From: an uncultured Pseudomonadota bacterium
Lineage (GTDB): Bacteria; Pseudomonadota; Alphaproteobacteria; Rs-D84
Length of the DNA stretch: 64,000 bases
Assembly: GCA_947303585.1 (NCBI GenBank)
Contig: CAMYYT010000002.1
Coordinates: forward strand, 2,326 to 66,325
Direction of reading: 5' to 3'
Both the position numbers and the translations under genes were made by a program. Positions within the stretch are counted from its first letter, which is position 1. Each line of letters begins with the position of its first letter. The notes under the pieces are model-generated. The model worked only from the letters and a program-made list of their open reading frames with translations, made no database searches and had not been told where the DNA came from. Shown piece after piece: positions 23,800-47,800 of the stretch.

Positions 23800-24258
23800 A
23801 TGTTGCACAATATCTGTTTTTCGGGTATTGTGCAACTGATGCTAGAAAATATAAAGATTTATTCTTCTGATAAGTATTGGCAGCATATTTTTGCTGATTT
23901 GGGTGCAATTGTTGTCGATAATCAAAATATGGCAGACGTGGTCTTTGATGATATTGCAACAAATACGCCGGTTTCGGTTGATGATTTAAAAAAGCTGATT
24001 TTTGATTGTTTGGATAACCAAGATATAATCACGAATATTTTTGGTCGGTATATTATTTTACCAAATTTGCAACGCAAGGTCATAGTTTCACTGTATAAAA
24101 ACCCAAATATATCTATGCGAGAATTAAAAGAAAACCTTGGCTTTTTGCCAGACGTAACCACTCACACAGTTGAAAACGCGATTTATCAGTTAAGAAAAAA
24201 TTACGGACACGATTTTATACAAAACGACAACAGAAAATACAAAATTGGACACTTATAA
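23800..24258 (+). CDS. Putative transcriptional regulator with C-terminal OmpR/PhoB-type winged-helix domain
   Basis: LQRKVIVSLYKNPNISMRELKENLG...TTHTVENAIYQLRKNYG fits the trans_reg_C pattern. No receiver domain. Confidence 0.45.
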   Translation: MLHNICFSGIVQLMLENIKIYSSDKYWQHIFADLGAIVVDNQNMADVVFDDIATNTPVSVDDLKKLIFDCLDNQDIITNIFGRYIILPNLQRKVIVSLYKNPNISMRELKENLGFLPDVTTHTVENAIYQLRKNYGHDFIQNDNRKYKIGHL

Positions 24259-24913
24259 ATTATTATCTTTTGATAAAATCTCCAGCACCCAAGATTTGGC
24301 GCATGATTTAATCGCGCATGGAACTGCAACTAATAAAACTGTGGTTATGGCTTTGGCACAAAGTGCGGGGCGCGGCAGATACAGACGAACTTGGGTTTCT
24401 CATCATGGTAATTTATATGCTTCATTTATTTATAAAATATATGAGCGTGACCCAAAATTATCTTATGCTATCGCGGTGGCAATCGCAGAAACTTTGATTT
24501 CTTTTGGGATGGTGCCACAGATTAAATGGCCTAATGATGTATTAATAGACGGAAAAAAAATCAGCGGCGTTTTAATAGAATATTCTCAAAATTTTGTAAT
24601 TGTAGGAATTGGGATAAACATAAAAACTTGTCCGACTGTCAAAGAATACAAAACTACGAAAATACATAAATACAATCAAAATGTCGATACCAAAGATGTG
24701 TTAAATACTCTGATGAAAAAAATAGACAAATGGCGTAATGCAAATTTTTCTGTCGTTCGAGAACGTTGGATGGAACTAGCCGCAGGTCTTAATAAAACGA
24801 TACAATATCATGGTAAACCGGCAGAATTAATAGGTCTTAATGAAGATGGGGCTTTGGTGTTGCGCGAAAATACCAGATATATTTTAACATATGGTGATGA
24901 AATCAGTATTTAA
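24245..24913 (+). CDS. birA: Biotin--[acetyl-CoA-carboxylase] ligase (BirA, group I without HTH)
   Basis: SSTQDLA..ALAQSAGRGRYRRTWVSHHGNLYASF. Likely TTG start overlapping upstream gene. Confidence 0.8.
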   Translation: MDTYKLLSFDKISSTQDLAHDLIAHGTATNKTVVMALAQSAGRGRYRRTWVSHHGNLYASFIYKIYERDPKLSYAIAVAIAETLISFGMVPQIKWPNDVLIDGKKISGVLIEYSQNFVIVGIGINIKTCPTVKEYKTTKIHKYNQNVDTKDVLNTLMKKIDKWRNANFSVVRERWMELAAGLNKTIQYHGKPAELIGLNEDGALVLRENTRYILTYGDEISI

Positions 24914-24975
24914 AAGCGCTTGACTTTGATACGAATTTATGATATTACATAACACATCAAGAATGAAAATTCTGT

Positions 24976-24998
24976 CCGCCATCAAGGGCGGTTTTTTT
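24976..24998 (+). terminator. Rho-independent terminator after birA
   Basis: CCGCCatcaagGGCGG + TTTTTTT. Confidence 0.65.
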
Positions 24999-25065
24999 AT
25001 TCTTGTTTTTTGTTGCCGCGCGAATTGTCGTGCGGTTTTTTTTATTAACTAACACAGGTAAAATC

Positions 25066-25476
25066 ATGCAACTAGTTTTAATAAAAAATCCAGACGATAC
25101 ACAAAACATATCGTATAAATTAGCGCGAATCATATTTGCTGAAACCAAAGGTGTCTCTTTGCAATCTGTCGAAGCGATGGCTGCGATGATACATAATATT
25201 CATATTAAATATGGCAAATCTTTTGAAGACATTGCAACAGATAAAAATATTTTCGACTCTTTAAATCATTTTTCTCCGCGAAAAAAATTTTTATCTGTAG
25301 ATATAAACGACAGAAAATTTCAAATGTGTTTGCGAGTTGTTAAAACTATGTTGCATGGCCATTTGCGTGATTGTGTGTTTGGTGCGACTAAATTTCATCA
25401 CACAGATACGATGCCACAATGGGCAATTGCGCGCGGTTATATTTTTGAATGTGAAGACATACTTTATTATTTATAA
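25066..25476 (+). CDS. Cell wall hydrolase, SleB/Hydrolase_2 family (possible phage-derived endolysin)
   Basis: LARIIFAETKGVSLQSVEAMAAMIHN and C-terminal HHTDTMPQWAIARGYIFECEDILYY. RBS AGGTAA before ATG 25066. Confidence 0.65.
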   Translation: MQLVLIKNPDDTQNISYKLARIIFAETKGVSLQSVEAMAAMIHNIHIKYGKSFEDIATDKNIFDSLNHFSPRKKFLSVDINDRKFQMCLRVVKTMLHGHLRDCVFGATKFHHTDTMPQWAIARGYIFECEDILYYL

Positions 25477-25493
25477 ACAACAAAAGGAAAATT

Positions 25494-25685
25494 ATGAACA
25501 AAATAATCAAAGGCGGTTATTTACAAAATCGAAAAACTTATGTTGTATCAACAGTTGGTATTGTGTCTGCAATTGGTGCGTATCTGGTGGGCGATGCAGA
25601 TATATTCACAATGTTGCAAACTATATTTACATTGGGTGGTATCTATTTTCTTAAACAAGAATCTTCAACCAAAGGAAAAAAATAA
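25494..25685 (+). CDS. Small two-TM membrane protein (holin-like candidate)
   Basis: RBS AAAAGGAAA. Two hydrophobic helices, basic C-terminus. Immediately downstream of the cell wall hydrolase. Confidence 0.4.
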   Translation: MNKIIKGGYLQNRKTYVVSTVGIVSAIGAYLVGDADIFTMLQTIFTLGGIYFLKQESSTKGKK

Positions 25686-26341
25686 TGGAACAAATTCCAG
25701 AAAAATTTCTAGATGACAAAGGCGAATTAAATACATCGGCTTTGGTTAAATCATATTGCGAACTTGAAAAAAAGATGAGTAATATGATTCCTTTGCCAAA
25801 CGATGAAAGCGACGAAGCAACAAAACAAAAATTTAATCATGCAATTGGTGTGCCTGATAATGCAACAGATTATCCAACGAATCCGTTGTTCGAAGACGAA
25901 TCGGTTCGTGAAAAATTTCATGAAATTGGTTTGACTTCAAAACAAGTTGAACAAATTTATGCAATCGCTGAAGAATTTTTACAACCAACATTAAAAAATT
26001 TATTTCAACTACAAAATCAAACAAATGCGACAAATGAATTGAAAAAATTTTTTGGTGATGAAGAAAAAATGAATGATGCATTACGTGAAATAAATTCGTT
26101 TGGTGAAAAATATTTACCAAAAGATGCGTTTGATGAATTATGTGCTACACCCCAGGGAATCCAAGGCATATACAAGATGATGCAATCTCTAGAACCTGAT
26201 GTTTTAACCAATAAAAACACAACAGAAATTTTAAGTGATGATGTTTTGCGTGATATGATGCGTAATCCAAAATATTGGCGAGATCATGATCCAGAATATG
26301 TAAGAAAAATTGAAAATGGTTTTAAAAAATTATACTCATAA
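25685..26341 (+). CDS. Hypothetical acidic protein (possibly phage scaffold-like)
   Basis: ATG overlaps upstream stop (taATGg). No recognisable catalytic motif. Confidence 0.45.
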   Translation: MEQIPEKFLDDKGELNTSALVKSYCELEKKMSNMIPLPNDESDEATKQKFNHAIGVPDNATDYPTNPLFEDESVREKFHEIGLTSKQVEQIYAIAEEFLQPTLKNLFQLQNQTNATNELKKFFGDEEKMNDALREINSFGEKYLPKDAFDELCATPQGIQGIYKMMQSLEPDVLTNKNTTEILSDDVLRDMMRNPKYWRDHDPEYVRKIENGFKKLYS

Positions 26342-26440
26342 TTAATTTTTATTCTTTACTATTTGTTTTCTTTCGTATAAAATATAAAACAAGAACAAAA
26401 AAAATTTTGTTCTATCCGAAAACATAGAAAGGAGAGAATT

Positions 26441-26734
26441 ATGTTCGGCTTAAAGAAAAAATGTGGTTGCACAAAAACAGCTGCTAAACCAGCTGCTGCA
26501 AAAAAACCAGTTGCTAAAAAAGCACCTGCAAAAAAACCAGCTGCGAAAAAAGTAGCTGCAAAAAAACCAGTTGCAAAAAAACCAGCTGCAAAAAAAGTAG
26601 TTGCAAAAAAACCAGCTGCTAAAAAAGTAGTTGCAAAAAAACCAGTTGCTAAAAAAGCACCTGCAAAAAAACCAGTTGCTAAAAAAGCACCTGCAAAAAA
26701 AACAGCTGCTAAAAAAGTAGTAAAGAAAAAATAA
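26441..26734 (+). CDS. Histone H1-like lysine/alanine-rich nucleoid protein
   Basis: 13 or more AKKPAAKK-type repeats. Strong RBS GAAAGGAGAGAA. Terminator follows. Confidence 0.75.
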
Positions 26735-26756
26735 TAAATAATTAATTGATTATTTG

Positions 26757-26788
26757 TCCCCAAAATCAAAGGTTTTGGGGATTTTTTT
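26757..26788 (+). terminator. Rho-independent terminator
   Basis: CCCCAAAAtcaaaggTTTTGGGG + TTTTTTTT. Confidence 0.7.
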
Positions 26789-27110
26789 TATGATAAATTT
26801 TTCAGTTAGATGAATTATCAAGTCTAACTGAATTTTTTATTGGATAATCCATTTTTGTGGACCCGAATTAAGATTTTGTTTTTTTGGCGCATTTATTTTG
26901 CATAACCATTAATCAAAATTAAGGCTTTTATTTTTAACTTAAACAAAAAGGATTTCTTATGTCTATGTCTGTAGACCAAGTGTTTATAAAACAATTTGAA
27001 GCAGATGTCCATTTGGCATATCAACAGTTTAATATATAACAAGATTATTTTTAAAAATAAAAATTTATTTGTGATCGTATTCAAATTTAATTATTTGCGA
27101 AGATTTATAA

Positions 27111-27248
27111 ATGCTAAACGCCTGCGATACCCAACGAATCAATCTGCGAGAAAGATTACGAGAACTAGATTTTATTCTTTCCCCCCATGGTTCTATGATT
27201 TATATAGGAACACCGCACACAAAAGATACTATATATAAAACAAATTAA
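27111..27248 (+). pseudogene. Remnant of the terminase large-subunit ATPase domain (coupling-motif region)
   Basis: 45-codon ORF ..DFILSPHGSMIYIGTPHTKDTIYKTN resembles T4 gp17 ..KIIITTTPNGLNHFYDIW. The matching C-terminal nuclease domain lies at 30529. Confidence 0.35.
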
Positions 27249-27886
27249 TCTTCGGATGTTAAGAACGTTCGCAATTTGTTAAGAACATCTTTGCCTTGTT
27301 CTCCGAACATTGGTAAAAATGTTTCATATTCTGGCATATCTGCTTGAATTTGGGCGCGATTGCGTTCGGTTAATGTTTCCGATAATAATTCTTTTGCGGA
27401 ATACCAAATTTGATAAGCCTTGTCTGCCCTGATAACATCTTGCCATTTTGCAGACAGTTCAGCATCAGAAGTCAATGCTGCCTTTATATCTCTTGCCCAA
27501 TCGTTGCCAAACTTTTGTACAAAAGGTAATTTTTTTATTGCGATCAAACTTTCTTGTGTCGGTTCAAATTTATCCAAAGCTGCTTTTAGTTTGGAAATTT
27601 CGTCAGCGGTCAAAGAGAAAACCACTTCTTGATCAGACATTGTTCCGCCATAAGGCAATAAATCTTTATCAATAGTATTTATTGGGGTTTTGCCAGAACG
27701 TAAATTATTTATATGAGCGACCAATTTCTTTCCCGTAGGAAGATTTTCAAGTTCTGTTATAATCTGTTCGCTGTTGGCTTCTTCCAAAAATACTTTGTTA
27801 ACAGCAGTCCACCCGCCGTCAATTACGTGTTCTTGGCGGTAAAGGTTTAATAACCGTTGTGCTACTATGTGTGCTTGTTGTGGCAT
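27245..27886 (-). CDS. Hypothetical protein
   Basis: 213-aa ORF, first gene of the minus-strand block inserted between terminase fragments. Confidence 0.45.
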   Translation of the reverse strand: MPQQAHIVAQRLLNLYRQEHVIDGGWTAVNKVFLEEANSEQIITELENLPTGKKLVAHINNLRSGKTPINTIDKDLLPYGGTMSDQEVVFSLTADEISKLKAALDKFEPTQESLIAIKKLPFVQKFGNDWARDIKAALTSDAELSAKWQDVIRADKAYQIWYSAKELLSETLTERNRAQIQADMPEYETFLPMFGEQGKDVLNKLRTFLTSED

Positions 27887-27910
27887 GGTTCTCTCTCCTG
27901 CATTTAACGA

Positions 27911-28918
27911 TTATTGCATGACAATCATAACAACCTTGTGCATTGTTTTGCCAGTAATTTTTTCTTCTGGGTTAGATATATGACCATATATTTTACCACG
28001 AGAATCTTGGCGAACAACGACAATTTGTGCTTCTGTTGTGTCATCGGATTTCATCTTTGAAAAATCTGCATCTATACATACAGCCAAATCACCAACCTTA
28101 GGTTCTATATTAGCATCAACAAAGATGTATGCAGATTCTGGGATAAAACCAGATAATCTTTTAGAATTTGGTATCACGGCATAAACCCCGCTGCGTCCTT
28201 CTAATGCAGCAGGCGCAACAATCATAGTTTCGTCAGATTTCTTTAATTTCAAGCCTTTGTCCAAAGGTTTGCCAAACACAGGAACCAATTTTTTACGCGC
28301 ATTATCATACAATTGCGCGCCATATAAACCGCCGTGTATATCCAACCCGGATACAGGGTTCCCAGGTTCCAATACAGACTTTACGCGTTCTGTGACTTTG
28401 TTTATTTGTTTAGTTAATTCACCAGCATTATACAATTTGGTGATTTCGTCGAACAGTTGCGAAGAAGTATATCCAAAAGCCTTGGCCAAAACATCAATTT
28501 CATCTTCGTAAACTTCGCGTTGTCCGACTTCGATTTTATGGTACACAGACAAAGTCATATTTGCAGCTTTTGCGGCATCTGCAATAGTTTTTTCACAACG
28601 TTGACGTATTTTACGCAACCCAGAACCAAAAATCTTTAAACCGCTATCCTCATTGTCATTCAAACGGCGTTTAATTTCGTTTTGCCAATTTTGAGCAACC
28701 GCATCAGATTCATGAATAAATATGTCTGATAATTTGCATCCCAGTATGGTGCACACATTTAACAGTTGTTTCTGGTTAAGACGGCGAACGCCTTTTTCTA
28801 TCTTGGAAACCGCAGACAAGGATAAATTAGCGCGTCTAGCCAGTTCAGTCATTTTCATCCCTTTCGCAGCACGAATGTTACGAATGTTATTAGGAAAAAT
28901 GATTTCTTCTTGTGCCAT
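27911..28918 (-). CDS. Dual-HTH (XRE-type) transcriptional repressor with C-terminal S24 LexA/CI-like peptidase domain
   Basis: Two HTH_XRE units (MTELARRANLSLSAVSKIEKG.. and IADAAKAANMTLSVYHKIEVG..) then S24-like fold (VPVFGKPLDKG..SGFIPESAYIFVD..GDLAVC..IVVVRQDSRGKIYG). Confidence 0.7.
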   Translation of the reverse strand: MAQEEIIFPNNIRNIRAAKGMKMTELARRANLSLSAVSKIEKGVRRLNQKQLLNVCTILGCKLSDIFIHESDAVAQNWQNEIKRRLNDNEDSGLKIFGSGLRKIRQRCEKTIADAAKAANMTLSVYHKIEVGQREVYEDEIDVLAKAFGYTSSQLFDEITKLYNAGELTKQINKVTERVKSVLEPGNPVSGLDIHGGLYGAQLYDNARKKLVPVFGKPLDKGLKLKKSDETMIVAPAALEGRSGVYAVIPNSKRLSGFIPESAYIFVDANIEPKVGDLAVCIDADFSKMKSDDTTEAQIVVVRQDSRGKIYGHISNPEEKITGKTMHKVVMIVMQ

Positions 28919-28985
28919 AATTGAACTCCTTGAAATCTATGTTGACAAAATCTTAGTCAATTTTTTGAATCTTGGCAAGAAAAAA

Positions 28986-30530
28986 TTATAAAATGTCATC
29001 AGGAATATCATTTATGTCCACCACACCTTGTGTCAAAGTGTCATTCGGTGTGGCAAATTCAGATGTACTTTCAGAATCAGGAGATTGAGGATAATGTTGT
29101 AAATTATCAAATAATGAATATTCACCAAAGAAGCTTAAATGAACGCTTTCTGGTTTGCCATGACGGTTCTTTGCGATAATAACATCTGCTTTGTTTCGGG
29201 CAGCGTCCATACGTTTTTGCCAAGTCTGCATTGCATTATCAGAAGTCAAACCTGACAAACGTTTGTCAGGAGAATGTCCTTCAAGATAATATTCTTCGCG
29301 GTATGTAAACATAACAATATCCGCATCTTGTTCAATAGACCCAGATTCACGTAAATCGGACAAGATTGGGCGTTTATCGTCGCGTTCTTCAACCTTACGA
29401 GAAAGCTGGGACAGAACGACAACAGGCACATCAAGTTCTTTTGCCAAGATTTTAAGCCCGCGGGTAATTTCTGATAATTCTTGAACGCGATTATCGTTGC
29501 GTTTGCCACCAGGAACAGTCATTAACTGTAAATAGTCAATAACGATAAGAGCGATTCCGCCAAATTGACGCGCGATACGGCGTGCACGTGTTTTAACCCC
29601 TGGAACAGACATTTCAGAAGTGTCGTCGATAACAATAGGTACTTTGGACAAAGCATCTGTGTATTGAGACATTTTCATAAAATCTTCATCAGTCAAATTA
29701 CTGCCTTCGCGCATACGGGAAGAAGGTATCTTTGATTGTGATGACAATATACGAGCCGCTAATTGAGGATAGGACATTTCCAAACTAAAGAAAGCAACCG
29801 CTCCTTTGTATTGCTGGTTTGCGCGCCCGTTTAATATTGCGTTAGCGGCATTGAAAGCGATATTAAGCGCCAATGTCGTTTTACCCATAGCGGGACGTCC
29901 AGCAAGAATTATTAAATCAGAACGATGCAAACCGCTGATAGATTTGTCTAAATCATCAAGCCCCGTTGTTAAACCAGATAATTTTCCGTCTGCTTTGTAA
30001 GCGATTTCCGCTTCTTGCAAGGCGCTTTTTAGCGCATCAGCCAATGTTACTACATTGCGTTCGGTTTGCCCAATAGACGCCAAATTAAATAATTTTTGTT
30101 CGGCGGATTCTATTTGGGTGTTCACAGGTTTGTCTAAATCTTCGGTATATGCATCATCAATAATACTTTGTCCCAGATTTATCAAATCACGGCGACGCGC
30201 ATTATCAAAAACAATACGACCATAATGTTCAACATTTACAACCGTAGCCCCTGCCGCAGTTAATTTAGATAAATATTCAACGCCACCAACATTATCCAAA
30301 ATACCTTGCTGTTCAAGATATGTCTTTGCAGTAATTATATCAAAAGGTATTCCAATTGCGAATTGGCGCAGAGCCAATTTATAAATTTCTTGGTGTGCCA
30401 CATGTGAAAAATGTTCGGGTAACAAAAAATCGGATACGGATTCCAATGCACGATTATTAAGTAACACCGCAGCCAGAACAGCTTGTTCTGCTTCTAAATT
30501 CACAGGTAAAGATTTAGGGGTAAAATCCAT
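28986..30530 (-). CDS. dnaB: Replicative DNA helicase DnaB
   Basis: N-terminal DnaB domain (LPVNLEAEQAVLAAVLLNN..), Walker A AGRPAMGKTTLALNIA, RecA-like core, acidic C-tail. Confidence 0.85.
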   Translation of the reverse strand: MDFTPKSLPVNLEAEQAVLAAVLLNNRALESVSDFLLPEHFSHVAHQEIYKLALRQFAIGIPFDIITAKTYLEQQGILDNVGGVEYLSKLTAAGATVVNVEHYGRIVFDNARRRDLINLGQSIIDDAYTEDLDKPVNTQIESAEQKLFNLASIGQTERNVVTLADALKSALQEAEIAYKADGKLSGLTTGLDDLDKSISGLHRSDLIILAGRPAMGKTTLALNIAFNAANAILNGRANQQYKGAVAFFSLEMSYPQLAARILSSQSKIPSSRMREGSNLTDEDFMKMSQYTDALSKVPIVIDDTSEMSVPGVKTRARRIARQFGGIALIVIDYLQLMTVPGGKRNDNRVQELSEITRGLKILAKELDVPVVVLSQLSRKVEERDDKRPILSDLRESGSIEQDADIVMFTYREEYYLEGHSPDKRLSGLTSDNAMQTWQKRMDAARNKADVIIAKNRHGKPESVHLSFFGEYSLFDNLQHYPQSPDSESTSEFATPNDTLTQGVVDINDIPDDIL

Positions 30531-31377
30531 GTCTCTAAGATTAAACGAAAATTTTGATAATTCAACACCTTTTTTAAGCGGGTATAAACAATTAACAATA
30601 CCAATTATGGATAAGGCCGGAAATCCGGCATGGCCAGAAATGTTTCCGCTTGAAAAAATACACGAACTTGAAAAAGTTGTGGGAAATAGACATTTTTCTG
30701 CTCAAATGATGTTGGAATATATCCCAGAAGAGCGTATACATCTTGATCCCGGAGCAATCAGCTTTTATCGCGATGATTTTGACAGGCGTTTATGTCGAAT
30801 CGGTAACCACATTATAACAGGTGTCAGTTTTTATTGGGATCCGTCATCTGGACGACAAAAATCAGATGGCAGCGTCTGTGCGCTGGTTTATCGTGATGAT
30901 AAAAACAGAACAGTATTCGTTCACGATGTTTTGTATATGTCTGTTATGGACGACGATTTATATCCGTTGGCTAATCAATGCGATACAGTTCTAGATTTTA
31001 TGCAAAAACATAACTTGGTAAGAATAGGAATTGAAATAAACGGACTCGGTAATGCTTTACCAGAAATTATCAGAACCAAAGCACAACAAAAACAACTTTC
31101 GATAAACATAGTTCAAATATCAAATCACACTAAAAAAGAAACAAGAATATTAAACGCCATAGAACCAGTTTTGACTACAGGCCATCTTTATATGCACGAA
31201 AAAATCAAAAAAACGATGTTGTTGTCAGAAATGTTGGCATGGACGCCACTTGGTTCCAAAGAACACGATGACGGTCTAGATGCTGTGTCTGGTGCATTGA
31301 CTATGGATACATATCCAATCAGACCGTTGAATCAATATACGAAACAGATTCGTGCAAACACAGAATTTAACATATAA
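30529..31377 (+). pseudogene. Phage terminase large subunit, C-terminal nuclease domain only (T4 gp17-like; N-terminal ATPase domain missing)
   Basis: ..GNRHFSAQMMLEYIP.. then RNaseH-like nuclease region VSFYWDPSSGRQKSDGSVCALV...EHDDGLDAVSGAL aligns with T4 gp17 residues about 330-580. Confidence 0.6.
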
Positions 31378-31393
31378 CCAAAAGGAAAAATAA

Positions 31394-32623
31394 ATGCAAA
31401 AAAATCTTATGCAATTATATAAACGCGCATTAAATGAACGCGAAGTATGGATGAGCAGATGGAAATCAGCTATGCGATATACGATTCCCGCGGACGACGC
31501 AGATATCGCAACACTTTTTGATGCTACTGCGTCAGACGCTGTTGATAATTTGGCTGCGTCTATGTATTCATTGCTGACGCCCCCAGAATCTTTGTGGATA
31601 AATTTAGTCCGTGAAAGTGATTTATCACCAAATGCTGAAATTGCGACATCTGTTTTGCGGGCGCATTTGAATGATTCTAATTTTTATACAAGCATTCATC
31701 AATGTTATATAGATTTAGTAGTTCTTGGGACAGCGTGTTTGTTTATGGCAGAAAATCCGATAGGCTCTTCATCTGCGTTTTCTTTTACTGCAATCCCAAT
31801 GACAGATATCGCTATATTACCAGGTGCAATCTTCCATACAACTTCGTTGCCAGCCTGTGATTTGATGGAAAAATATCCTAATATAACCTTGCCGTCGCAT
31901 ATGAAAGATACAATAAAAAACAATCCCGAAACCCCAATCAGATTAGTTCAATCTTTGATAGGTAAAGATTTTACAGCTTGGATAGATGTAGGTGGTGATT
32001 TTGAAAACAATATTGTAGCGCGTGGAACATTTGAAACCAATCCATATATAATCTTTCGTTGGTCTTTGGTAAGCGGTGAATTATACGGTCGCGGCCCGGT
32101 ATTGCGCGCGCTGCCAGATATAAAAACAGCAAACAAAGTTGTAGAATTAGTTTTGAAAAATGCAACTATCGCAGTTAGCGGAATTTGGCAAGCTGATGAT
32201 GATGGCGTTATTAATTTATCTAATATAAATTTAACACCTGGCGCAATAATACCAAAAGCGGTAGGCAGTTCTGGTTTAACACCGCTAGCAAGTGGCGCTG
32301 ATTTTGATGTGTCGCAAATAGTGTTGCGTGATTTACGAGACAGAATAAGACATACTTTATTGGCAGACCGGCTAGGTCTTTTGTCAGACAAAGAAATGAC
32401 TGCCACAGAAATATTGGCTCGCAATTCTGATATGGTTCGAATTTTGGGGGCAACATATGGACGCCTTTTGCACGAATTTATAAGACCTTTGTGTGAACGC
32501 GGACTTCAAATATTATCTCGTCGTGGATTGATAGACAAAATATCTTTACATAGCGATGCAGAATTAAAGTATATCGCACCAATTGCACAAATGGCGCGTG
32601 AAGAAATGTTAATAGAAGGATAA
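31394..32623 (+). CDS. Phage portal protein
   Basis: Immediately downstream of the terminase fragment. 409 aa with length and composition typical of HK97/GTA-type portals. Assignment by context plus weak similarity. Confidence 0.5.
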   Translation: MQKNLMQLYKRALNEREVWMSRWKSAMRYTIPADDADIATLFDATASDAVDNLAASMYSLLTPPESLWINLVRESDLSPNAEIATSVLRAHLNDSNFYTSIHQCYIDLVVLGTACLFMAENPIGSSSAFSFTAIPMTDIAILPGAIFHTTSLPACDLMEKYPNITLPSHMKDTIKNNPETPIRLVQSLIGKDFTAWIDVGGDFENNIVARGTFETNPYIIFRWSLVSGELYGRGPVLRALPDIKTANKVVELVLKNATIAVSGIWQADDDGVINLSNINLTPGAIIPKAVGSSGLTPLASGADFDVSQIVLRDLRDRIRHTLLADRLGLLSDKEMTATEILARNSDMVRILGATYGRLLHEFIRPLCERGLQILSRRGLIDKISLHSDAELKYIAPIAQMAREEMLIEG

Positions 32624-32628
32624 TTATT

Positions 32629-32829
32629 ATGACTGAAATTGAAAAACAATATGCACGAACTTTCACATGCAATAGCGGTAAACAGGTTTGGGCTCATTTG
32701 CGAGGTTTGACCATAGAACGCGTTATAGGTCCAAATGTATCAGATAATGAATTGCGTTGGTGGGCTGCACAAAATGCGCTGGTGCATCAAATAGAAAAAT
32801 TTATAAAAAGGGGCAATAATCCAACATGA
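32629..32829 (+). CDS. Small hypothetical protein (phage-region)
   Basis: 66-aa ORF 5 nt after the portal stop. Confidence 0.3.
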   Translation: MTEIEKQYARTFTCNSGKQVWAHLRGLTIERVIGPNVSDNELRWWAAQNALVHQIEKFIKRGNNPT

Positions 32830-32866
32830 TATGTATATAGGTTTATGGTAAATTATTGATAAAAAT

Positions 32867-33127
32867 ATGTCAAAACAACAAAGTTTTTTTAATATCATAG
32901 ACATCTTGCGAGACAGCTGGTTTTTGCTAGCTTTTATTGCTGGTCTAATTTATTGGGTTGCCCGTCAAGATTCGTCTTTGACGGAAATAGAACGACAAGA
33001 ACAACGCATTACGGCACTTGAAAACAGAACAACTGTTTTAGAATCTGGTATAGGTCAATTACAATTAAAAATAGATGGAATCAAAGAAGATGTGACTTTG
33101 ATAAAAAGTGCTGTTATAAAAAATTAA
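32867..33127 (+). CDS. Small membrane/coiled-coil protein (phage-region)
   Basis: One TM helix then coiled-coil heptads. Confidence 0.35.
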   Translation: MSKQQSFFNIIDILRDSWFLLAFIAGLIYWVARQDSSLTEIERQEQRITALENRTTVLESGIGQLQLKIDGIKEDVTLIKSAVIKN

Positions 33128-33480
33128 ATAGAATTTTTAGCCCAATATATTTTATGACCACAAACAACAATAACATCAAATCTGGCATCTCCTTTCCATT
33201 GATGTTGAATTAAATAAGTTTCTGCGGCACGACGCAAACGTACTGATTGTATTGGGGTAATTGCTTCCCAGACCGCAGAAATATTTTTGCGATATTTCAC
33301 TTCTACAAAAACGATAGTATTTTTATGTTTTGCGATAATATCTATTTCTGCACGATTTGTATTTTTGCCGGTCACATATCTGCTTTTTAAAATTTTATAT
33401 CCATGTAATCTCAGATACATTCTTGCCAAGAATTCGGAAAACAATCCAGTCTGATAAGATGTTTTTGTTTTAAAAAGCAT
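33124..33480 (-). CDS. yraN: YraN-family (UPF0102) endonuclease
   Basis: GEFLARMYLRLHGYKILKSRY...EIDIIAKHKNTIVFVEVKYR. Confidence 0.75.
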   Translation of the reverse strand: MLFKTKTSYQTGLFSEFLARMYLRLHGYKILKSRYVTGKNTNRAEIDIIAKHKNTIVFVEVKYRKNISAVWEAITPIQSVRLRRAAETYLIQHQWKGDARFDVIVVCGHKIYWAKNSI

Positions 33481-34285
33481 ATGGTTTTGCCTGGAAATTT
33501 TCTTTGGCTTTCAATACGTTTTCAGAAATATCTGTTGTATGTAATCCTTCATCAACCAAGACAAGCTTTCCATAAAAAGCTTGTAACATTGGGGCATATT
33601 CATTTTCTTCGGAAATCCATTTGTCTTCCCCAGAATTAGGTTGACCGTATTTATCAATGACGCCTTGCCAGAAAGCAAGAAGTTTTTTTTCGCGCTGATT
33701 AGAAAATTTACCGTTTGATTCATTATCAACGCCATCTAAATCATCTGCGTCATTTGTGTATTCGACTTTCCATACCACATTGTCAGTAGCATTACTGGTA
33801 AAAAATATATCAACTTTTTCACCAGTAAAATCTCTTTCCAAATGAATTTCGGACACATAAAGCAAGCCACGTTGTTTGGCTAACGAATAAATACATCTTT
33901 CCAGTTTTTCTGGAATAAAAACATTGTTTTGGCGGCATTCGTAATCAAGATTGTATTTCCATTCTTTGTCTATGCCGTAAACAACACTATTTTTCTTGCG
34001 TGGTGCGTAAAGATTAGAACCCGTGAAAAAAAGCTCATTAATTTCATCATAATTCATCCCTAACATTACACCTGCGATATCGAAATGGTTTACATCAACA
34101 AAGCTGCCGTTCGCATCCAAAGAAACTGTTTCTGGAACAGAATAGTCATCTTCATCAGTCACATCTATTTCAGCAAAATTATCAAAATCCAAAGGGTCTG
34201 TTTCATCAGCAAAAGAAGCAATCGACAAAAATGTGCCAAAACAAAAATATACGCACAATAAAAATTTTTTCATTTTTATCACCAT
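33470..34285 (-). CDS. Hypothetical secreted acidic protein (last gene of four-gene envelope operon)
   Basis: Signal peptide MKKFLLCVYFCFGTFLSIASFA. ATGA overlap with upstream gene. Confidence 0.5.
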   Translation of the reverse strand: MVIKMKKFLLCVYFCFGTFLSIASFADETDPLDFDNFAEIDVTDEDDYSVPETVSLDANGSFVDVNHFDIAGVMLGMNYDEINELFFTGSNLYAPRKKNSVVYGIDKEWKYNLDYECRQNNVFIPEKLERCIYSLAKQRGLLYVSEIHLERDFTGEKVDIFFTSNATDNVVWKVEYTNDADDLDGVDNESNGKFSNQREKKLLAFWQGVIDKYGQPNSGEDKWISEENEYAPMLQAFYGKLVLVDEGLHTTDISENVLKAKENFQAKPYAF

Positions 34286-34977
34286 TATTCTTCCTTGTTT
34301 TTTATAGCTTCGTTATTTATATCTAATACATAAAATACAAACAACCCTGCGGGATTGCTGCCCGTTTTCAAATCTTTGACAAGTCTTTCTGCACTAAGTG
34401 TATGATTCTCAGAATCCTTTTTTCGTAATCCTGGTTCAAACACAACTTCCATGAAAATAGTTTTATCTTCTCGCACTGGTTGTGATTCTATCATATTTGG
34501 TTCAAGCCATGTAAGTGTGTGATATTTGACCTTGTAATAACCATTGGTAGTATTGCCATAAGATGCAGTAAAATTTTGATTGGTTATGCTGTCAACGCGC
34601 AGCAAACGCAACATGTTCTGACCAGACATTTCTAATATCAAAGGTTGTTCTTCTGTTAACCATTTTGTTTTTACAGACGAACTTGATTGATTTTCCAGAA
34701 TGTCCCTTTTTGCCAAAGCATTTTTTTCGCCTGGAATAACTTTGAAATATTCGGATAAATATTTTTCTATTAATTTATCGCGCAAGCTATCAGCAGGAAT
34801 AGATTTTATGTCATACACTTGACTAATTCGTTGATCTGGGTTGTTGCCAGTTTGAAAAAAATAAGTTTTGATAGAAGAACGTTCTTTGGCAATATAAATC
34901 AATGCCACCAACACCAACATAGCGCAAATCGTTATCAAAACAATAACCCCAGTAAAAAATGATTTTATTCTATTCAT
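34285..34977 (-). CDS. Bitopic membrane protein with VirB8-like features (N-terminal TM, periplasmic domain, C-terminal NPxG motif)
   Basis: TM helix residues 8-30. C-terminal ..TGSNPAGLFVFYVLD resembles the VirB8/TrbF NPLG motif. Size (230 aa) matches VirB8. Confidence 0.4.
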   Translation of the reverse strand: MNRIKSFFTGVIVLITICAMLVLVALIYIAKERSSIKTYFFQTGNNPDQRISQVYDIKSIPADSLRDKLIEKYLSEYFKVIPGEKNALAKRDILENQSSSSVKTKWLTEEQPLILEMSGQNMLRLLRVDSITNQNFTASYGNTTNGYYKVKYHTLTWLEPNMIESQPVREDKTIFMEVVFEPGLRKKDSENHTLSAERLVKDLKTGSNPAGLFVFYVLDINNEAIKNKEE

Positions 34978-35669
34978 TTTGAAATCCGATATGTATAAAA
35001 TTCGTTAATATAATACCCAAATGTAGCAGGATAAAGCAAAGAATCACGCGCAACAGTTATAAAAAACAAAACCTTAAAACTTTCATTGTTTGAAGTGTTT
35101 ACAGATACAGTGCCACGCCAAAAACTGCCGTTTTCATCAATTTTACCAGGGACAACTTGTGGTCGTTCCGGTTTCCAAAATTCCGCATTTTCAGCTATTT
35201 TTGTTCTATAAACAGGCAACACATTATCAACAAATTCTTGATATAAATTCCTGGATGATTTGCAAGCCAACGCGCATGTTATGTTTATTGGACTAAATAT
35301 CTCAGGTTTGCTACAATCTTCTTTTACTTCGCAATTCTTCCATCTTGCTTCGTTGGTTGCTTCGTTCGTAGATATAGTAAACCAATTAGTGATGTAATCA
35401 TGAACAAGTTTTTCTTGAATAACTTGGTAGCGATTGACTGTTTCTGCTTCTTTATCTGGGTAAGCAATAACTTTCCATTCATTGGTTGTTGGATTAATTG
35501 ATATTAATACAGGGTATTGTTTTGTAAAATGTTGGCAAAACAGGATAAAACCACAAACAACGACAATCATAAAAAAGGTTATTGCTGTCCATATAGACAT
35601 AATACGAGACAGGGCAATTGATTTGCCCGCTCGAAAAGTTTTTATATCAAATCCATTTGGGTAATCCAA
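34974..35669 (-). CDS. Bitopic membrane protein (short cytoplasmic tail, TM, periplasmic domain with 4 Cys); possible second VirB8-like paralog
   Basis: Topology from hydrophobicity. 4-nt overlap with next gene. Confidence 0.4.
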   Translation of the reverse strand: MDYPNGFDIKTFRAGKSIALSRIMSIWTAITFFMIVVVCGFILFCQHFTKQYPVLISINPTTNEWKVIAYPDKEAETVNRYQVIQEKLVHDYITNWFTISTNEATNEARWKNCEVKEDCSKPEIFSPINITCALACKSSRNLYQEFVDNVLPVYRTKIAENAEFWKPERPQVVPGKIDENGSFWRGTVSVNTSNNESFKVLFFITVARDSLLYPATFGYYINEFYTYRISK

Positions 35670-41812: not shown

Positions 41813-41838
41813 AAAATCGCCCATTTGGGCGATTTTTT
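41813..41838. terminator. Bidirectional rho-independent terminator
   Basis: AAAATCGCCCAtttgGGCGATTTTTT. Also overlaps the stop of the giant minus-strand gene. Confidence 0.7.
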
Positions 41839-44800
41839 AATTACCAGTTCGTATTTGCCATTTGATTTTATAACCTGTCCGGGCAGTTGCGCTGCTTGGT
41901 ATAGTCAAATGTTCATCATAATAACATTGATTGGTTTCCAGATTATTATTTCCATCATACCAAGTAATGCTGTAAGAATTCGGATTGCAAGGTGGTGCAG
42001 AATTTGGACCATAACTTCCAAACAAAGCGGTTTCGTATTCGCCATTTGAATTTTCTGGTTGGAAAAGAACTTGTATGCACCGTTCTGTGCAAGTTGTCGC
42101 ACAGCTGTTTTGGTCTCCAAAAGCATCCCAATACACCCAATTTGTATCACTGACACTCACTGCAGACGAACCATTAAGATGATATCCGGTCATATTGCAC
42201 CAACATTCTTTGCCAACGCTTAATGTATTAAATGTTCCATTGGTTTTCGGTTCAAACAAATCACCAGATGTAGAATTGCATGACGAACGTCCTTGGATTT
42301 TTGTTCCATTACTGTACACCAATTCAAAAGTTCCTTTGTTCAAACTCGTTGCATCGCCACCAAAGAATTCACCCGTTCCGCTTTGGGTTGAACTATCATT
42401 AGATTTAAATTTGGTTGCAGACAAATTCAAATTTCTAGATGCGTTTATGTAATTAACCAACGGACCATCTGACCAGGGGGTTGTTGCAGTATAACCAGCA
42501 TTGCAGGTAAATGAAGATATAGCACATGCGCCGATTGATTCTGTTTGGGCAACTGTTCCTGGATCGTATATTCTGGTTGCGGCAGTACTGTTTGCATATG
42601 TCACATTCGCACCACGCACAGGATTTATTACCGAACATAAAAGTGTCGCAGGAGATCTGTAGCAGAAAGCAACATCCCTGCTGCCAGCGTCAGAATATGG
42701 GAATTCGCTTGGGCAATCAGATAAACCTTGGGCAAAACTTACTTTTTCCCAAGTTCCGCCAGGGCACCAATGGTTTTGGGGACATGTTGCACACACTGTT
42801 GCATTTGCCGGTAAATATTCACCAGGTGCGCAAGTATACGTTGGTACCGGTGCACCACAAGATTTATTCATCCCAAATGAACCAAATTCGGGTGCTAAGG
42901 CAAGCTGCATGGCACATGCGTTTGCACATTTTTTTTCACAGATACTTATATCAATAAAGTCAGTTTTGAATAGTCTTTCTGCGGGATTTACGGATACTGT
43001 ATTGCCGCTGCCAATTTTATAACTTGTTAAATCGCAATTACAATCATATTTTCCGTTGGCATTAACAGCACACGAAGCGGTTCCGGTAATATCCAATTCA
43101 TTCCAATATACTAACCTGAATGTTCCATTTGTCATGCCGGTTGAATCTCCATAATTCCCGTTAGCACCGCTGCTGTTGTCACTACTGCCATCTATTGCAC
43201 GGTAATAAATATTATGGTTAGAAGTCGAGCTTGGCATACCATACAATGGCGATTCATAATTTGCCAAAGGTCCATCAGTTCCAACTAAAACTTCGCCTGC
43301 ATTACTGCAAGTTGCACCAGTCACCGCACAACCACCAAATGGGGTAACCACACTTCCGCCACCATAATAGTTTCTTTGTGTCACAGGACTGTTCGCATAA
43401 GATACAGATGTCGTATTTAATATTTTCACAAGCGTCGAACAGTCTACGCCTGTTTTATCGTAATAACAAAATGTAACATCTGTCGTTCCTGCATCAGAAG
43501 AAGGATGGTCATCAGGACAAGATTCTCTGCCGTAAGGTTTGTTGGCTGAGATATTGCTGGCAGGTACATCGGTAAAGCCTGGACAATAATAACCAGCCTC
43601 ACAAAGTGTACAAGTTGTTGAATTTGCCGGAAAATAATACCCGGGATCGCAAGAATAGGTTTGTTCTACGCATGCCATCTGTTCACCGTATTCCCCAATA
43701 ATATTGGTTCTGACCGTAGTGTTAGACATAAAATAGGCAACGCATTGTTCTGCGCAATTATCTGTGCAAGTAGCCGGGGACCGTATTGGTACATACACAG
43801 AATTCGCATCGTTAACAGACGTGCTGCCATTACCAATGTCATAACCCGTCATTTGACACCAGCAATACGTATCTGTGCCACCGGCTTTTGCCCCCCCAGA
43901 ATTACCAGATTTAGTTTTGGGAGTGGCTTCTTTATATTCACCAGCGCTGGTACCAGCTGTTGAATTACATGTGGCATCAAGATATATTTGGGTACCATCA
44001 CTCCACGTGATAACGGCAGTTCCATCTGTCATACCGGTTGAATCGCCAAATCCGTTTGCAACACCACTGTTTGCGCCACTGTTACCACTTGCTGCCCTAT
44101 AAAGAGTGCTACTCTTTGAAATACTGTGTGCCTGGTTGACATAGTTTGCCAATGGGCCATTTGATGATGGTTCTTTGACATATCCAGTATCACAAGACAA
44201 ACTGATAATTTCACATGCGCCAATATCTTCCGTTTCTCGACCGGCGTCACTATAAGTGATAGAGCCACTTGATGAATTTGCATAAGTCGCTGTCCCGTTT
44301 GATACAGGATTTATTTTGGAACAAGAATAACTTCCGCTGGTCGAATAACATTGTTGTAGAAAACTTGAACCTGCGTCAGAGTTTGGATATTTAACATTAC
44401 ACGCGATTTTGCCTTGATCATCACTGTCGTTATATGGATAAATTCCACCCGGACAATAGTAGTTTGCCGGACATCCGATGCAGGATGTTGCGTTTTTCGG
44501 TAAATATTGCCCCGCAGGACAAATTATTTGCATAGTTGCCGAACATTCGCCAGAACTGGCCGTCCCAGGTAAAGAATATGGTGTAGAAGTCGGACAAGGG
44601 TACAAACCTTGGTCATCGTCTTCGTCCAGTTCAACATCTGTGACACCTGGGCAATAATAATCTGATGGACAAAGCGCGCAATCTTCGGAATCAGCAGGTA
44701 AATAATAACCTGCATCACAACTGTATGTGAATCCTTGGGGACCTTTGGCACCGTATTTAAAATTACCACCATTACAAGATTTCGCCTTTGGGCAAGATTG

Positions 44801-47800
44801 ACATTTTGTACTTTTTTCTGGCAAATATTCGCCTGCCTCACATTTCGCAGCATAACAATCATCGGCACTTTTTGCACCCAAATCAGACAAAGGGTTGTTT
44901 GAATCTACTTTGGAACATTCGGACAGTCCTTGGTCTTCTTTGTCGTTAAAAGATAATCCTTTGGCACCACTGCAAAAATACCCTTCCCAACAAGGGTCAC
45001 ATTGTGTGCTGCCAGCTTTTAAAAGTTCACCTTCGGCACAATTAATTGTTGCGCTGCATTGTGTGGACGAAGTGGCACCCGCCGGTGAAAACGGTGTTGA
45101 TGTATCGCATTTCGTTATACCTTGGGTTGAAGTGTTATTGGTAAATGTCCCCCCAACACAATAATTTCCCGACGGGCATATGCTGCATACAAATGTTCCG
45201 CCCCCCAGATACGTTCCTGCCAAACAAACAAGGTTTGCCTTGCAATCGCTGCTATCGTCAGAACCAGATTCCGAGAACGGGCTTGTTGTTGGGCATTTTT
45301 CTATACCTTGGTCGTTTGTTTCGCTATATGAATATTTCCCCCCTTTGCAATAAGAACCGGATGGACAAATGTCGCATTTATCAAAGCCCATTGGCAAATA
45401 ATACCCAGTCTCGCAATCAATAGTGTCTGTCTTGGCATAACAATCACTTTCGCCTTTTGCACCCGGGTTTGAATAAGGTGCTGTTGTTGGGCATTGGCTT
45501 AAGCCCTGATCTTTATCCTGACCTTTGTAAAATCCGCCACCTTTGCAATAATATCCTCCCAAACATTCTGCGCATTCATAATCTTTATCTTTTGGCAGAT
45601 ATTCCCCAGCGTTGCAAGTGATGTCGTATATCGTGGCATAACAATCACTTTCACTTTTTGCACCCGGGTTTGAATAAGGTGCTGTTGTTGGGCATTGGTC
45701 TAAGCCATGTTCTTTGTCATCTGGGGTCCATGTGCCACCTTTGCAGTAATATTTTATCCAACATGTTTCACATTTATTGTCCTTGGATAAAAATTCCCCA
45801 GCGCTGCAAGTGATGTCGGTTGTCTTGGCATAACAATCACCATCGCCTTTTGCACCTTTATCAGAATAAGGTTTGTCATCTGGGCATTGGGTTAAACCTT
45901 GGTGGTTTTTATCGTCATACGAATAAGGGCTTTTTGTTCCATCACAATAATAGCCTTCCCAACAAGATTCACAATCTGTTTTTTCTACGGGCAAAAATTC
46001 ACCTTCGGCACAATTAATTGTTGCACTGCATTGTGTGGACGAAGTGGCACCCGCCGGTGAAAACGGTGTTGATGTATCGCATTTCGTTATACCTTGGGTT
46101 GAAGTGTTATTGGTAAATGTCCCCCCAACACAATAATTTCCCGACGGGCATATGCTGCATACAAATGTTCCGCCCCCCAGATACGTTCCTGCCAAACAAA
46201 CAAGGTTTGCCTTGCAATCGCTGCTATCGTCAGAACCAGATTCCGAGAACGGGCTTGTTGTTGGGCATTTTTCTATACCTTGGTCGTTTGTTTCGCTATA
46301 TGGATATTTTCCCCCTTTGCAATAAGAACCAGCAGGACAAGTTCTACAATCGGAGTATGAAAAGGCCGGCAAAAATTCACCCGCTTTACATGTGACCGTG
46401 TCAAAGCAAGAATTTTCATCCGAAGCGCCGATTTTTGAGTAAGGTGCTGTTGTTGGACATTTTTCTATACCTTGATCTTTGGTATTATCAACCGTAACAC
46501 CCTTAATACCACTGCAATAAGAACCAATCGGACAAATGACGCATTTGTTATCGCCTTTGGGTAAATAAGACCCAGTGTCACAACCAATAGTGTCTGTCTT
46601 GGCATAACAATCACCTTTGCCTTTTGCACCTTTATCAGAATAAGGTGTTGCCTCTGGACATTGGTTTAAGCCATGTTCTTTGTCATCTGGGGTCCACGTG
46701 CCACCTTTGCAGTAATAATTTGCCCAACATGTTTCACATTTATTGTCCTTGGATAAAAATTCCCCCGCACCGCAAGTGATGTCGGTTGTCTTGCCATAAC
46801 AATCACCTTCGCCTTTCGCACCTTTATCAGAATAAGGTGCTGTTGTTGGGCATTGGGTTAAACCTTGGTCGTTTTTATCATCATACGAATAAGGGCTTTT
46901 TGTTCCATCACAAAAATATCCTTCCTGACAATCTGTGCACTGAATACCACCTTTCGCCAAAAATACACCGGCACCACAATCAATTGTCGCGCTGCATTGT
47001 GTGGACGAAGTAGCGCCGTCCGGTGAAAACGGTGTCGCGGTATCGCATTTCGTCATACCTTGGGTTGCGGTGTTATTGGTAAATGTTCCGCCACTGCACC
47101 AATAACCAGCCGGACAAGTTGAACAGGTTAGCATGCTTTCCCCCAGATACGTTCCTGCCAAACAAACAAGGTTTGCCTTGCAATCGCTGCTATCGTCAGA
47201 ACCAGATTCCGAGAACGGGCTTGTTGTTGGACATTGTTCTATACCTTGGTCGCCTGTTTCACTATATGGGTATTTTCCCCCTTTGCAATAAGAACCTGCA
47301 GGACAAGTTTTACAATCAGAGTATGAAAAGGCCGGCAAAAATTCACCATTCTTACATGTGGTCGTGTCAAAGCAAGAATTTTCATCTGAAGAGCCGATTT
47401 TTGAGTAAGGTGCTGTTGTTGGGCATTTTTCTATACCTTGGTCTTTGGTATTATCAACCGTAACACCCTTAATACCACTGCAATAAGAACCAATCGGACA
47501 AATGACGCATTTGTTATCGCCTTTGGGTAAATAAGACCCAGTGTCACAACCAATAGTGTCTGTCTTGGCATAACAATCACCTTTGCCTTTTGCACCTTTA
47601 TCAGAATAAGGTGTTGCCTCTGGACATTGGTTTAAGCCATGTTCTTTGTCATCTGGGGTCCACGTGCCACCTTTGCAGTAATAATTTTCCCGACACGTTT
47701 CGCATCCGCCTTCTTTACTTAAAAATTCCCCCGCGTCACAAGTGATGTCGGCACCAAATGCATTAAATGTAAACAAACTAAACAAAGCCAAAAGTGGCGT

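Follow-up and report, generated by a model that had tools for sequence, protein, structure and literature searches.

The 64-kb stretch of DNA analyzed here (64,000 nt; the window) is chromosomal and comes from a gut alphaproteobacterium of the order Rs-D84 ('Ca. Enterousia' and relatives). It carries a podovirus-derived gene cluster in which the large terminase subunit (TerL) is encoded by two open reading frames (ORFs), an ATPase half (TerL-N) and a nuclease half (TerL-C), with a module containing dnaB on the opposite strand between them. Judged by comparison with relatives, this split is ancestral and conserved in the whole order, with both halves intact and under purifying selection, and it does not reflect local decay. 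The cluster is probably a domesticated, candidate gene transfer agent (GTA)-like element with a two-subunit terminase, defective in this particular genome. An earlier note on the same DNA had proposed that a 3.3-kb module with dnaB, on the opposite strand, cuts TerL between the ATPase and the nuclease domain, and that observation proved largely real; the S24 peptidase domain that came with it could not be confirmed, and the T4-type enzyme and the picture of decay did not hold.

A terminase in two reading frames around dnaB

The relatives compared were contigs L001–L003, the loci of 80 GTDB species (283 relatives confirmed), and loci from IMG/VR. Ratios of nonsynonymous to synonymous substitution (dN/dS) were computed by the Nei-Gojobori method over the nine closest genomes, unless a pair is named. 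The features at the split are as follows.

27081–27248, plus strand: remnant of the 3' end of a TerL-N pseudogene, 57 codons (tblastn with TerL-N residues 146–201, frame translation, alignment)
27245–27886, minus strand: hyp213, conserved all-alpha protein of 213 residues, last gene of the dnaB operon (211–237 residues and present in all loci; dN/dS 0.12)
27911–28918, minus strand: HTH335, regulator with two XRE-type helix-turn-helix (HTH) domains and a beta-rich C-terminal domain (PF01381 in two stretches, 4e-19)
28986–30530, minus strand: dnaB, cellular-type replicative DNA helicase of 514 residues (PF00772 and PF03796; equivalog scores)
30528–30531, no strand: CATG head-to-head start overlap, in which the starts of dnaB (minus) and TerL-C (plus) share 2 nt (ORF coordinates)
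30529–31377, plus strand: TerL-C, stand-alone terminase nuclease domain of 282 residues, intact (profile matches, conserved acidic residues)

TerL-C is an RNase-H-like nuclease and, as the earlier note had read it, is without an ATPase domain. It matches PF22530 (1e-8; 35.8 bits, cut-off 27), PF17289 (1e-6; 29.2 bits, cut-off 22.6), positions 469–703 of phrog_38 (E 1.4e-39), and NF033889, termin_lrg_T7 (1.7e-28), and its acidic residues D104, E169, and D247/D248 are invariant among 20 sequences. The terminase is of the T7 gp19 type and not, as had been suggested, like gp17 of T4. A homology search with the nuclease gave more than 600 matches. Nearly all of the best 120, which come from metagenome-assembled genomes (MAGs) of gut and rumen Alphaproteobacteria and from 'Ca. 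Enterousia', are 256–283 residues long and 66–97% identical, so that the stand-alone nuclease is the conserved state.

The ATPase half is best seen in the relatives, where intact TerL-N ORFs have 199–202 residues and match positions 276–459 of phrog_38 (3e-45) and positions 5–190 of NF033889 (9e-67, 225.9 bits, cut-off 150). They keep the Walker A motif AFRHSGKS in 69 of 73 cases, the Walker B motif DLIICDDVE, and the coupling motif GTPHT. In the window a 45-residue ORF survives (27111–27248). It matches positions 421–459 of phrog_38 (E 1.2e-3), adjacent in the profile to the part matched by TerL-C, and is 80% identical to the final 43 residues of the relatives' intact ATPase ORFs. The earlier note had compared this fragment with the terminase ATPase coupling region and had let its reading depend on that similarity, which was found.

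In all Rs-D84 loci the halves are separate ORFs, each with its own conserved stop or start codon, whereas TerL is fused in distant relatives (477 residues in the outgroup locus L082, 484 in L083, 477–488 overall) and was matched as one contiguous piece in the IMG/VR loci L146–L166. The TerL matches listed from phage collections are likewise all contiguous, at 28% identity or less. Aligned to the fused homologues, the Rs-D84 break falls exactly in the interdomain linker between ATPase and nuclease: the fused ..GTPHTyeTIYdts-ssgFLkhw..IP corresponds to ..GTPHTkdTIYKTE, a stop, and then MSiRLNENFdNStPFLrGY..IP. Where the earlier note had counted a few residues as missing at the junction none is lost, and TerL-C has about 12 extra residues at its N-terminus. 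Our literature search turned up no natural case of a terminase split around a host gene.

TerL may have been in two ORFs before dnaB arrived, since one IMG/VR locus (L149) has a split without dnaB and stand-alone nuclease homologues occur outside Rs-D84. L149 has the Rs-D84 gene order, with TerL split at the same linker position and about 270 nt between the halves; it is the sole locus found with a split TerL and no dnaB, and a metagenome scan for its relatives found none. A search of 1.8 billion cluster representatives returned a dozen or more stand-alone nuclease homologues of 272–300 residues from outside the clade; for one of them (P0366) the context is uninformative, as only 204 nt of non-coding sequence precede it on the contig. 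The L149 gap itself (8788–9056) contains a perfect TTGACA-17-TATAAT promoter and, after it, a long T-run hairpin, and resembles a small RNA gene, with no match in Rfam. An ABC-F ATPase gene, not portal, lies 3' of the nuclease in L149.

The module between the halves (27245–30530) contains what the earlier note had listed, a hypothetical protein, a two-HTH protein, and a full-length DnaB, although the S24 domain assigned to the second could not be confirmed. The helicase scores as a cellular alphaproteobacterial DnaB, presumably the cell's own: it lies above the curated cut-offs of NF006606 (598.6 bits against 540) and TIGR00665 (494 against 385.25) and below that of TIGR03600, phage_DnaB (402.7 against 498.65), and its dN/dS is 0.03–0.07. 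There is no second dnaB among the annotated genes of the window. The 120 best DnaB homologues listed are all 70–93% identical, consistent with orthologues, and the four that we checked (L003, L084, L085, L086) are all at the same locus; a look-up of the exact DnaB sequence gave no match.

These scores fit one of two origins that the earlier note had put side by side, that the cell's replicative helicase gene sits inside a prophage or GTA. The other, in which helicase and regulator are phage cargo from an ancestral early region and replaced the host dnaB, is very improbable in our judgment. Temperate phages often have DnaB-type helicases together with CI-type repressors, HTH335 matches PHROG repressor families, and a true S24 repressor gene stands beside the L082 cluster; further, our DnaB reaches 1.9e-120 on TIGR03600, and one copy in nr (P0236) is labeled Caudoviricetes sp. 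Against this, the equivalog cut-offs place the protein on the cellular side, the outgroup clusters with a fused TerL lack dnaB, and HTH335 is not similar to the L082 S24 protein. As for the Caudoviricetes label, it goes back to virus-mining tools that call this chromosomal region viral.

HTH335 has 334–339 residues in all loci and a dN/dS of 0.07. An S24 peptidase domain is not supported, the evidence for it being negative in every profile search and ambiguous in the fold model. No PF00717 match appeared at E values up to 0.1 and no match in NCBIfam, the PDB profile search returned HTH proteins only, and hhalign against the true S24 protein of L082 gave a probability of 0.85%. At the putative catalytic dyad, 20 orthologues have S, T, G, or V at the Ser site and R, K, E, H, or D at the Lys site, which are thus not conserved. 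The AF2 model has a mean pLDDT of 60 and beta strands at 245–333, and its weak full-length Foldseek matches are to HTH-cupin enzymes and to lambda cI (3bdn; E 2.6e-3, TM 0.24). For hyp213 no family was found in Pfam (19 orthologues), PHROGs, NCBIfam, or a PDB profile search, and its confident single-sequence model (pLDDT 80.6) gave no Foldseek match with E <0.5.

There is zero intergenic DNA at both junctions of the module. On one side the stop codon of hyp213 overlaps that of TerL-N (TTAA). On the other is the CATG overlap, around which GTCCATGTC is invariant in a 20-locus alignment; this arrangement is found in 61 of 80 loci with a minus-strand dnaB, and in most of the remainder the dnaB and nuclease starts are at most 46 nt apart, the exceptions being L020 (about 290 nt) and L070 (about 2.2 kb). 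In two lineages dnaB alone is inverted to the plus strand, 77–96 nt upstream of the nuclease gene (L027, 8388–9899; L067, 8390–9895), and the orientation of hyp213 and HTH335 is unchanged.

Inheritance of the cluster and its deletion in the window

Across the clade the cluster, about 9.5 kb, occupies a fixed chromosomal site between birA and yraN/bamA, with housekeeping genes on both flanks. The order common to the loci compared places dnaB between TerL-N and TerL-C throughout. After the birA flank come, on the plus strand, a hydrolase, a 63-residue ORF, a T7-type scaffold, an HC2-like histone, and the capsid (PF19821), and then orf76, tail tube A, tail tube B, orf115, usually a 182-residue ORF resembling the N-terminus of the T7 fiber, and the TerL ATPase of about 200 residues. 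The minus-strand middle holds hyp213, HTH335, and DnaB, and the plus strand resumes with the 282-residue nuclease, the portal, a Bbp19-like ORF, and orf86, followed by yraN, bamA, rseP, cdsA, uppS, and frr. The proteins encoded are those of lysis, head, short tail, and packaging; no integrase, replication, or recombinase genes were found in the 20-kb loci examined. The window retains the following members on either side of the terminase.

25003–25476, plus strand: cell-wall hydrolase, endolysin-like, first cluster gene (phrog_938 endolysin 1e-7, weak PF07486, synteny); homology to relatives begins at 25066
25494–25685, plus strand: small hydrophobic protein of 63 residues (a conserved ORF of 62–80 residues adjoins the hydrolase in nearly all loci)
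25685–26341, plus strand: T7-type capsid assembly (scaffold) protein, 218 residues (PF05396 1.7e-8, phrog_3742 1.6e-16; 217–221 residues in all loci)
26441–26734, plus strand: Lys/Ala-rich histone H1/HC2-like DNA-binding protein (NF038052 1.2e-12; PF07382 in L001)
26793–26958, plus strand: conserved structured leader 5' of the capsid gene (49-locus alignment, RNAalifold)
31394–32623, plus strand: T7-type portal (head-tail connector), 409 residues, intact (PF12236 3.5e-78, phrog_332 6e-67; 72–91% identity across loci)
32629–32829, plus strand: Bbp19-like small phage protein, 66 residues (PF25181 3.9e-4, below the Pfam cut-off; syntenic in relatives and in the outgroup L082)
32867–33127, plus strand: orf86, last cluster gene (N-terminal hydrophobic segment and coiled coil; weak XhlA and Rz-like spanin matches; 78–90 residues; dN/dS 0.05)

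Among the 56 species-level Rs-D84 genomes whose contigs span scaffold to portal, 52 keep the full set of 12 core ORFs intact and of near-constant length, and two of the other four are a contig end and a run of N. The cluster genes have dN/dS values of 0.05–0.17 (capsid and portal 0.05, TerL-N 0.06, TerL-C and tube B 0.14), against 0.04–0.13 for BamA, RseP, CdsA, and UppS (BamA 0.06, RseP 0.04, CdsA 0.13). The capsid (78–94% identity) is more conserved than DnaB (62–85%). When genomes are compared in pairs, the distances of capsid, portal, and TerL follow those of DnaB and BamA (Spearman 0.5–0.8; 0.74 for the control, RseP versus BamA). These comparisons show the cluster to be passed on with the chromosome, and purifying selection on it to match that on housekeeping genes in strength. 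Constant ORF lengths, low dN/dS, co-divergence with the host, and the lack of integrase and replication genes together are, by these comparisons, the signature of a domesticated element and not of a decaying or mobile prophage.

The same observations make it extremely unlikely that the region is an active temperate phage or satellite at a hot spot, whose terminase is restored by excision, inversion, or splicing. Split genes that are restored when an element excises are familiar from the sigK skin element and the comK prophages, and 223 relatives of the cluster are listed in IMG/VR as viral contigs of about 10 kb (L087–L145 among our loci). Those contigs have the host dnaB inside them, and the viral labels are a systematic mislabeling of an essential host gene by virus-mining tools. 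Against an active element, the cluster keeps one site and diverges with its host, its loci have no integrase or replication genes, and excision would take out the essential dnaB. As routes to a rejoined TerL, excision, inversion, an intein, and an intron were each considered and rejected: the module boundaries have no direct or inverted repeats, no recombinase was found, each half has a conserved stop or start codon of its own, TerL-N ends at the domain boundary without an N-intein and TerL-C has only its dozen extra residues in place of an intein-sized extension, and no Rfam intron family matches.

The window's own copy is damaged, by an event separate from the split. Most of the ATPase domain is missing here through a deletion of about 4.7 kb and not through the dnaB insert. 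The earlier note's description of a decayed element applies to the window's copy alone, degraded by an unrelated recent loss, and not to the split architecture. The position with which that note had begun the terminase gene, 26959, is the opening of a 26-codon ORF, the N-terminus of the major capsid protein. Two features mark the deletion's left edge and its junction.

26959–27039, plus strand: major capsid gene remnant, the first 23–25 codons and then a stop (26-codon ORF)
27027–27084, no strand: AT-rich filler, about 58 bp long, in place of the deleted DNA (window compared with L084 and L086 by blastn; sequence read)

Residues 1–23 of the capsid remnant are identical to those of the 275-residue PF19821 capsids of L001 and L003. 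The TerL-N remnant at the other edge begins near residue 146 and runs to 202; its Walker B is degenerate, Walker A is absent, and there are an in-frame stop and a 2-codon deletion. Its surviving ORF keeps the coupling motif as IGTPHT. Against L084, whose cluster is intact and whose DnaB is 93% identical, the window aligns by blastn at 24001–27026 and 27133–34000. The deletion runs from capsid codon 24 to ATPase residue ~145, and with it went the rest of the capsid, orf76, tube A, tube B, orf115, the 182-residue fiber-like gene, and TerL-ATPase residues 1 to ~145. The loss is recent, since L086, with a 97% identical TerL-C and 93% nucleotide identity, retains orf115, the fiber gene, and an intact TerL-N; window against L086, dN/dS is 0.10 for TerL-C and 0.05 for the portal. 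The remaining cluster genes of the window presumably look intact merely because the loss is recent, and its genome would now be unable to make particles.

The same capsid-to-ATPase block was lost independently in L024 and L021. A single deletion common to all three was rejected on the differing left breakpoints (capsid codon 24, capsid leader, and capsid codon 160). All three spare the 3' end of TerL-N that abuts hyp213, its last 45 or more codons, and leave TerL-C untouched; TerL-C, portal, scaffold, and lysis genes are intact in these genomes without a capsid. The right breakpoints of the window (27081–27110) and L024 (6490–6530) nearly coincide, just before the Walker B codons (DLIICDD) of TerL-N, which may reflect microhomology or a recombination-prone site. 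The window's filler holds the Walker B DNA a second time, in degenerate form (ATTTATTTGTGATCGTA).

The deletions bear on the possibility that the cluster is an inert prophage remnant, which persists because the promoter, ribosome-binding site, and terminator of the dnaB operon are embedded in the terminase halves, so that selection would remove deletions. The seamless junctions on both sides of the module would fit, as would three independent deletions that stop short of the end of TerL-N and spare TerL-C, and the capsid-to-ATPase block can evidently be lost. Such entanglement, however, shields only the few hundred bases next to dnaB and not 9.5 kb of ORFs. Capsid, portal, tube, and scaffold keep their lengths, with dN/dS of 0.05–0.15, across at least 50 species whose genomes of <1 Mb otherwise shed DNA, and the catalytic motifs are conserved in both halves of TerL. 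We consider this explanation quite improbable.

A proposed gene transfer agent-like particle and its alternatives

The reading that we favor remains a domesticated GTA-like element. Two of the features by which such elements are recognized are found here: genes of phage type for structure, packaging, and lysis, with no replication or integration modules, in the intact relatives, and vertical inheritance under purifying selection, seen in the fixed locus, the co-divergence, and the dN/dS values. The particles of a GTA would in addition be expected to take up essentially random host DNA, in amounts too small to carry the cluster, and to deliver it to recipients. A GTA-like role is also the most economical, because the gene set suits a DNA-filled podovirus-like particle and lysis and has no genes for virus propagation. 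In intact genomes, the cluster would make a small T7-like particle of this kind, with ATPase and nuclease acting at the portal as separate subunits. With no intergenic DNA upstream, the nuclease-portal operon would need either a promoter within dnaB or read-through of transcripts from the capsid operon, which would cross the dnaB operon in antisense. In both cases, expression of particle and helicase would be physically coupled, probably antagonistically.

Taken to its limit, this mechanism would give a T7-like gene-transfer particle with separate motor subunits and a late operon head-to-head with and antisense to dnaB, in which the onset of particle production shuts down the helicase and its co-transcribed regulator, and vice versa. 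We think this full version rather unlikely. If it were true, an essential host operon nested in a domesticated viral gene would form a hard-wired switch between replication and packaging.

Several points weigh against a GTA-like element. First, parts of the expected machinery are not recognizable in the cluster: there is no small terminase and neither an internal core nor ejection proteins of the T7 type (orf115 has a faint resemblance to internal virion proteins), and the fiber has just 182 residues and is missing from some lineages (L001, L003). Second, the window, L024, and L021 are without the capsid-to-ATPase block, which is therefore dispensable at least sometimes; the window's deletion might in principle stem from the assembly or be a variant within the population. 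Third, a promoter scan around dnaB and TerL-C scored no better than shuffled sequences, and our literature search found no system in which ATPase and nuclease halves acting in trans package DNA. Fourth, the 5' end of TerL-C and the 3' end of TerL-N could have been kept in part for their overlap with signals of the dnaB operon and not for their own function. Finally, particle production and GTA function in Rs-D84 are read purely from the genes.

Some of these points would equally suit domestication for another role, such as that of a particle or portal-nuclease machine in DNA release or uptake, killing of competitors, or interaction with partner cells, and all of the conservation evidence would serve it as well. 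The lack of recognizable ejection proteins and small terminase, the minimal fiber, and the intact TerL-C, portal, scaffold, and lysis genes where the capsid is lost could be understood in this way, and Rs-D84 bacteria, with their reduced genomes, are metabolically dependent. Yet nothing positively favors any one of these roles, and scaffold, capsid, portal, terminase, tail tube, and endolysin are what a DNA-filled tailed particle needs; the intact genes of the deletion lineages may just mirror recent loss. Another role thus seems unlikely, and we return to the GTA-like element in comparing the cluster with known systems.

The RcGTA of Rhodobacter capsulatus and relatives, a viriform, is HK97/siphovirus-like with one contiguous TerL. 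The cluster resembles it as a chromosomal head, tail, and packaging cluster without replication or integration genes, inherited vertically across an order under purifying selection and with a lysis function. Unlike it, the Rs-D84 cluster is T7/podovirus-like (PF12236 portal, PF05396 scaffold, tubes A and B), with a two-ORF TerL and a nested essential host operon. In BaGTA of Bartonella, a phage-derived run-off replication origin amplifies neighboring DNA; here too a domesticated phage particle system of a host-associated alphaproteobacterium is physically linked to replication functions. The likeness drawn here is one of description; the Rs-D84 link is the cell's replicative helicase gene inside a terminase gene and not an origin.

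The compact clusters of L082 and L146–L166 are closer. They have the same set of about 9–12 kb (portal, Bbp19, scaffold, capsid, orf76, tubes A and B, TerL, hydrolase), and differ in the fused TerL and the lack of dnaB. L082, a more distant alphaproteobacterial MAG, has a 9-kb structural-only cluster that lies between the genuine Peptidase_S24 repressor gene and housekeeping genes (rsmB, rlmE, and a ccrM-like methylase gene), the region noted being 778–1446 and 2578–11563; the high-GC IMG/VR loci L150, L155, L160, and L164 have the same gene set. This compact type with fused TerL may represent a wider domesticated family. T7-like phages with gp19-type terminases and the Pelagibacter podophages, such as EXVC031P 'Hodr', share the protein families, and TerL is 24–28% identical to that of T7-like phages, but TerL is contiguous in the matches listed and these genomes have 32–45 kb, with replication genes. 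By capsid (43% identical) and portal (34%), the nearest isolated phage is a Pelagibacter podophage.

An element from another gut bacterium, FpGTA of Faecalibacterium, has been called the first element of the GTA-like kind to show a podovirus-like morphology, and also the first from the microbiome of the human gut (PMC12946183), and is the sole podovirus-like one that we found reported. It belongs to another phylum, with no sign of a split terminase, and has packaged-DNA evidence, whereas the Rs-D84 cluster, in this respect unlike RcGTA also, is known from its genes alone. For a packaging ATPase that works without an active nuclease in the same chain there is a parallel in gp16 of phi29 (PMC7672431). 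There, a vestigial nuclease-fold domain remains in cis and the DNA is unit-length and protein-primed; the Rs-D84 nuclease is separate and apparently active.

Other features of the locus and implications

The HC2-like gene is nested between scaffold and capsid and followed by a strong terminator (26756–26782); in L082 there is no room for it at this position. It is a second insert of non-phage appearance in the cluster, and may encode a nucleoid protein or a packaged DNA-condensing protein. Next to it, the capsid leader, still present in the window although the capsid is gone, combines, in this order, a T-run hairpin, the invariant sequence GGAYAAT, a second hairpin that covaries and ends in CCC, and a stem of the form NGG-CGCR..YGC-AYAA-CCN; it also has the ribosome-binding site AAAGGA. 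RNAalifold found 10 pairs, nine with compensatory changes, U-G pairs on the sense strand included. A terminator-like T-run hairpin lies upstream of the capsid in 62 of 64 loci; it is mostly the covarying CAGTCAGA/TCTGACTG hairpin, and in some loci the HC2-gene terminator further upstream. The leader, which matches no Rfam family, may serve the particle genes as an element for antitermination or for binding of a regulator.

At the ends of the cluster, the 63-residue protein, which has no family match, probably has a holin-like role, as its position and sequence suggest, and orf86 is a putative holin- or spanin-like protein. In L020, L024, L025, L028, and L033 an extra 260–920 nt lie between the nuclease and portal genes, which are separated by 15–30 nt in most loci. 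Between yraN and bamA the window has three consecutive minus-strand ORFs of 271, 230, and 231 residues (33470–35669) without a Pfam family, syntenic in the clade yet fast-evolving (27–76% identity). Outside the cluster, a minus-strand ORF of 1994 residues (41837–47821), whose sole Pfam match is a faint one to DUF7631, adjoins genes for tRNA-Ala and tRNA-His.

Genomes of Rs-D84 are mostly smaller than 1 Mb, and the paper describing the order is silent on phage genes. Our literature search found no link between Rs-D84 and phage or GTA genes, and nothing relevant on a T7-like GTA or a split terminase. If our reading is correct, a podovirus/T7-type lineage would join the few known domesticated phage-particle systems, in a widespread uncultured order of the gut and rumen. 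That about 1% of a genome of less than 1 Mb is kept for the cluster implies a real benefit. For viral catalogs, the consequence is contamination by pipelines that label this region, dnaB included, as viral. The two-ORF TerL would be a natural experiment on whether the ATPase and nuclease domains of a terminase can act in trans, and an essential replication gene interlocked with a viral packaging gene through overlapping start codons would offer a testable case of regulatory coupling.

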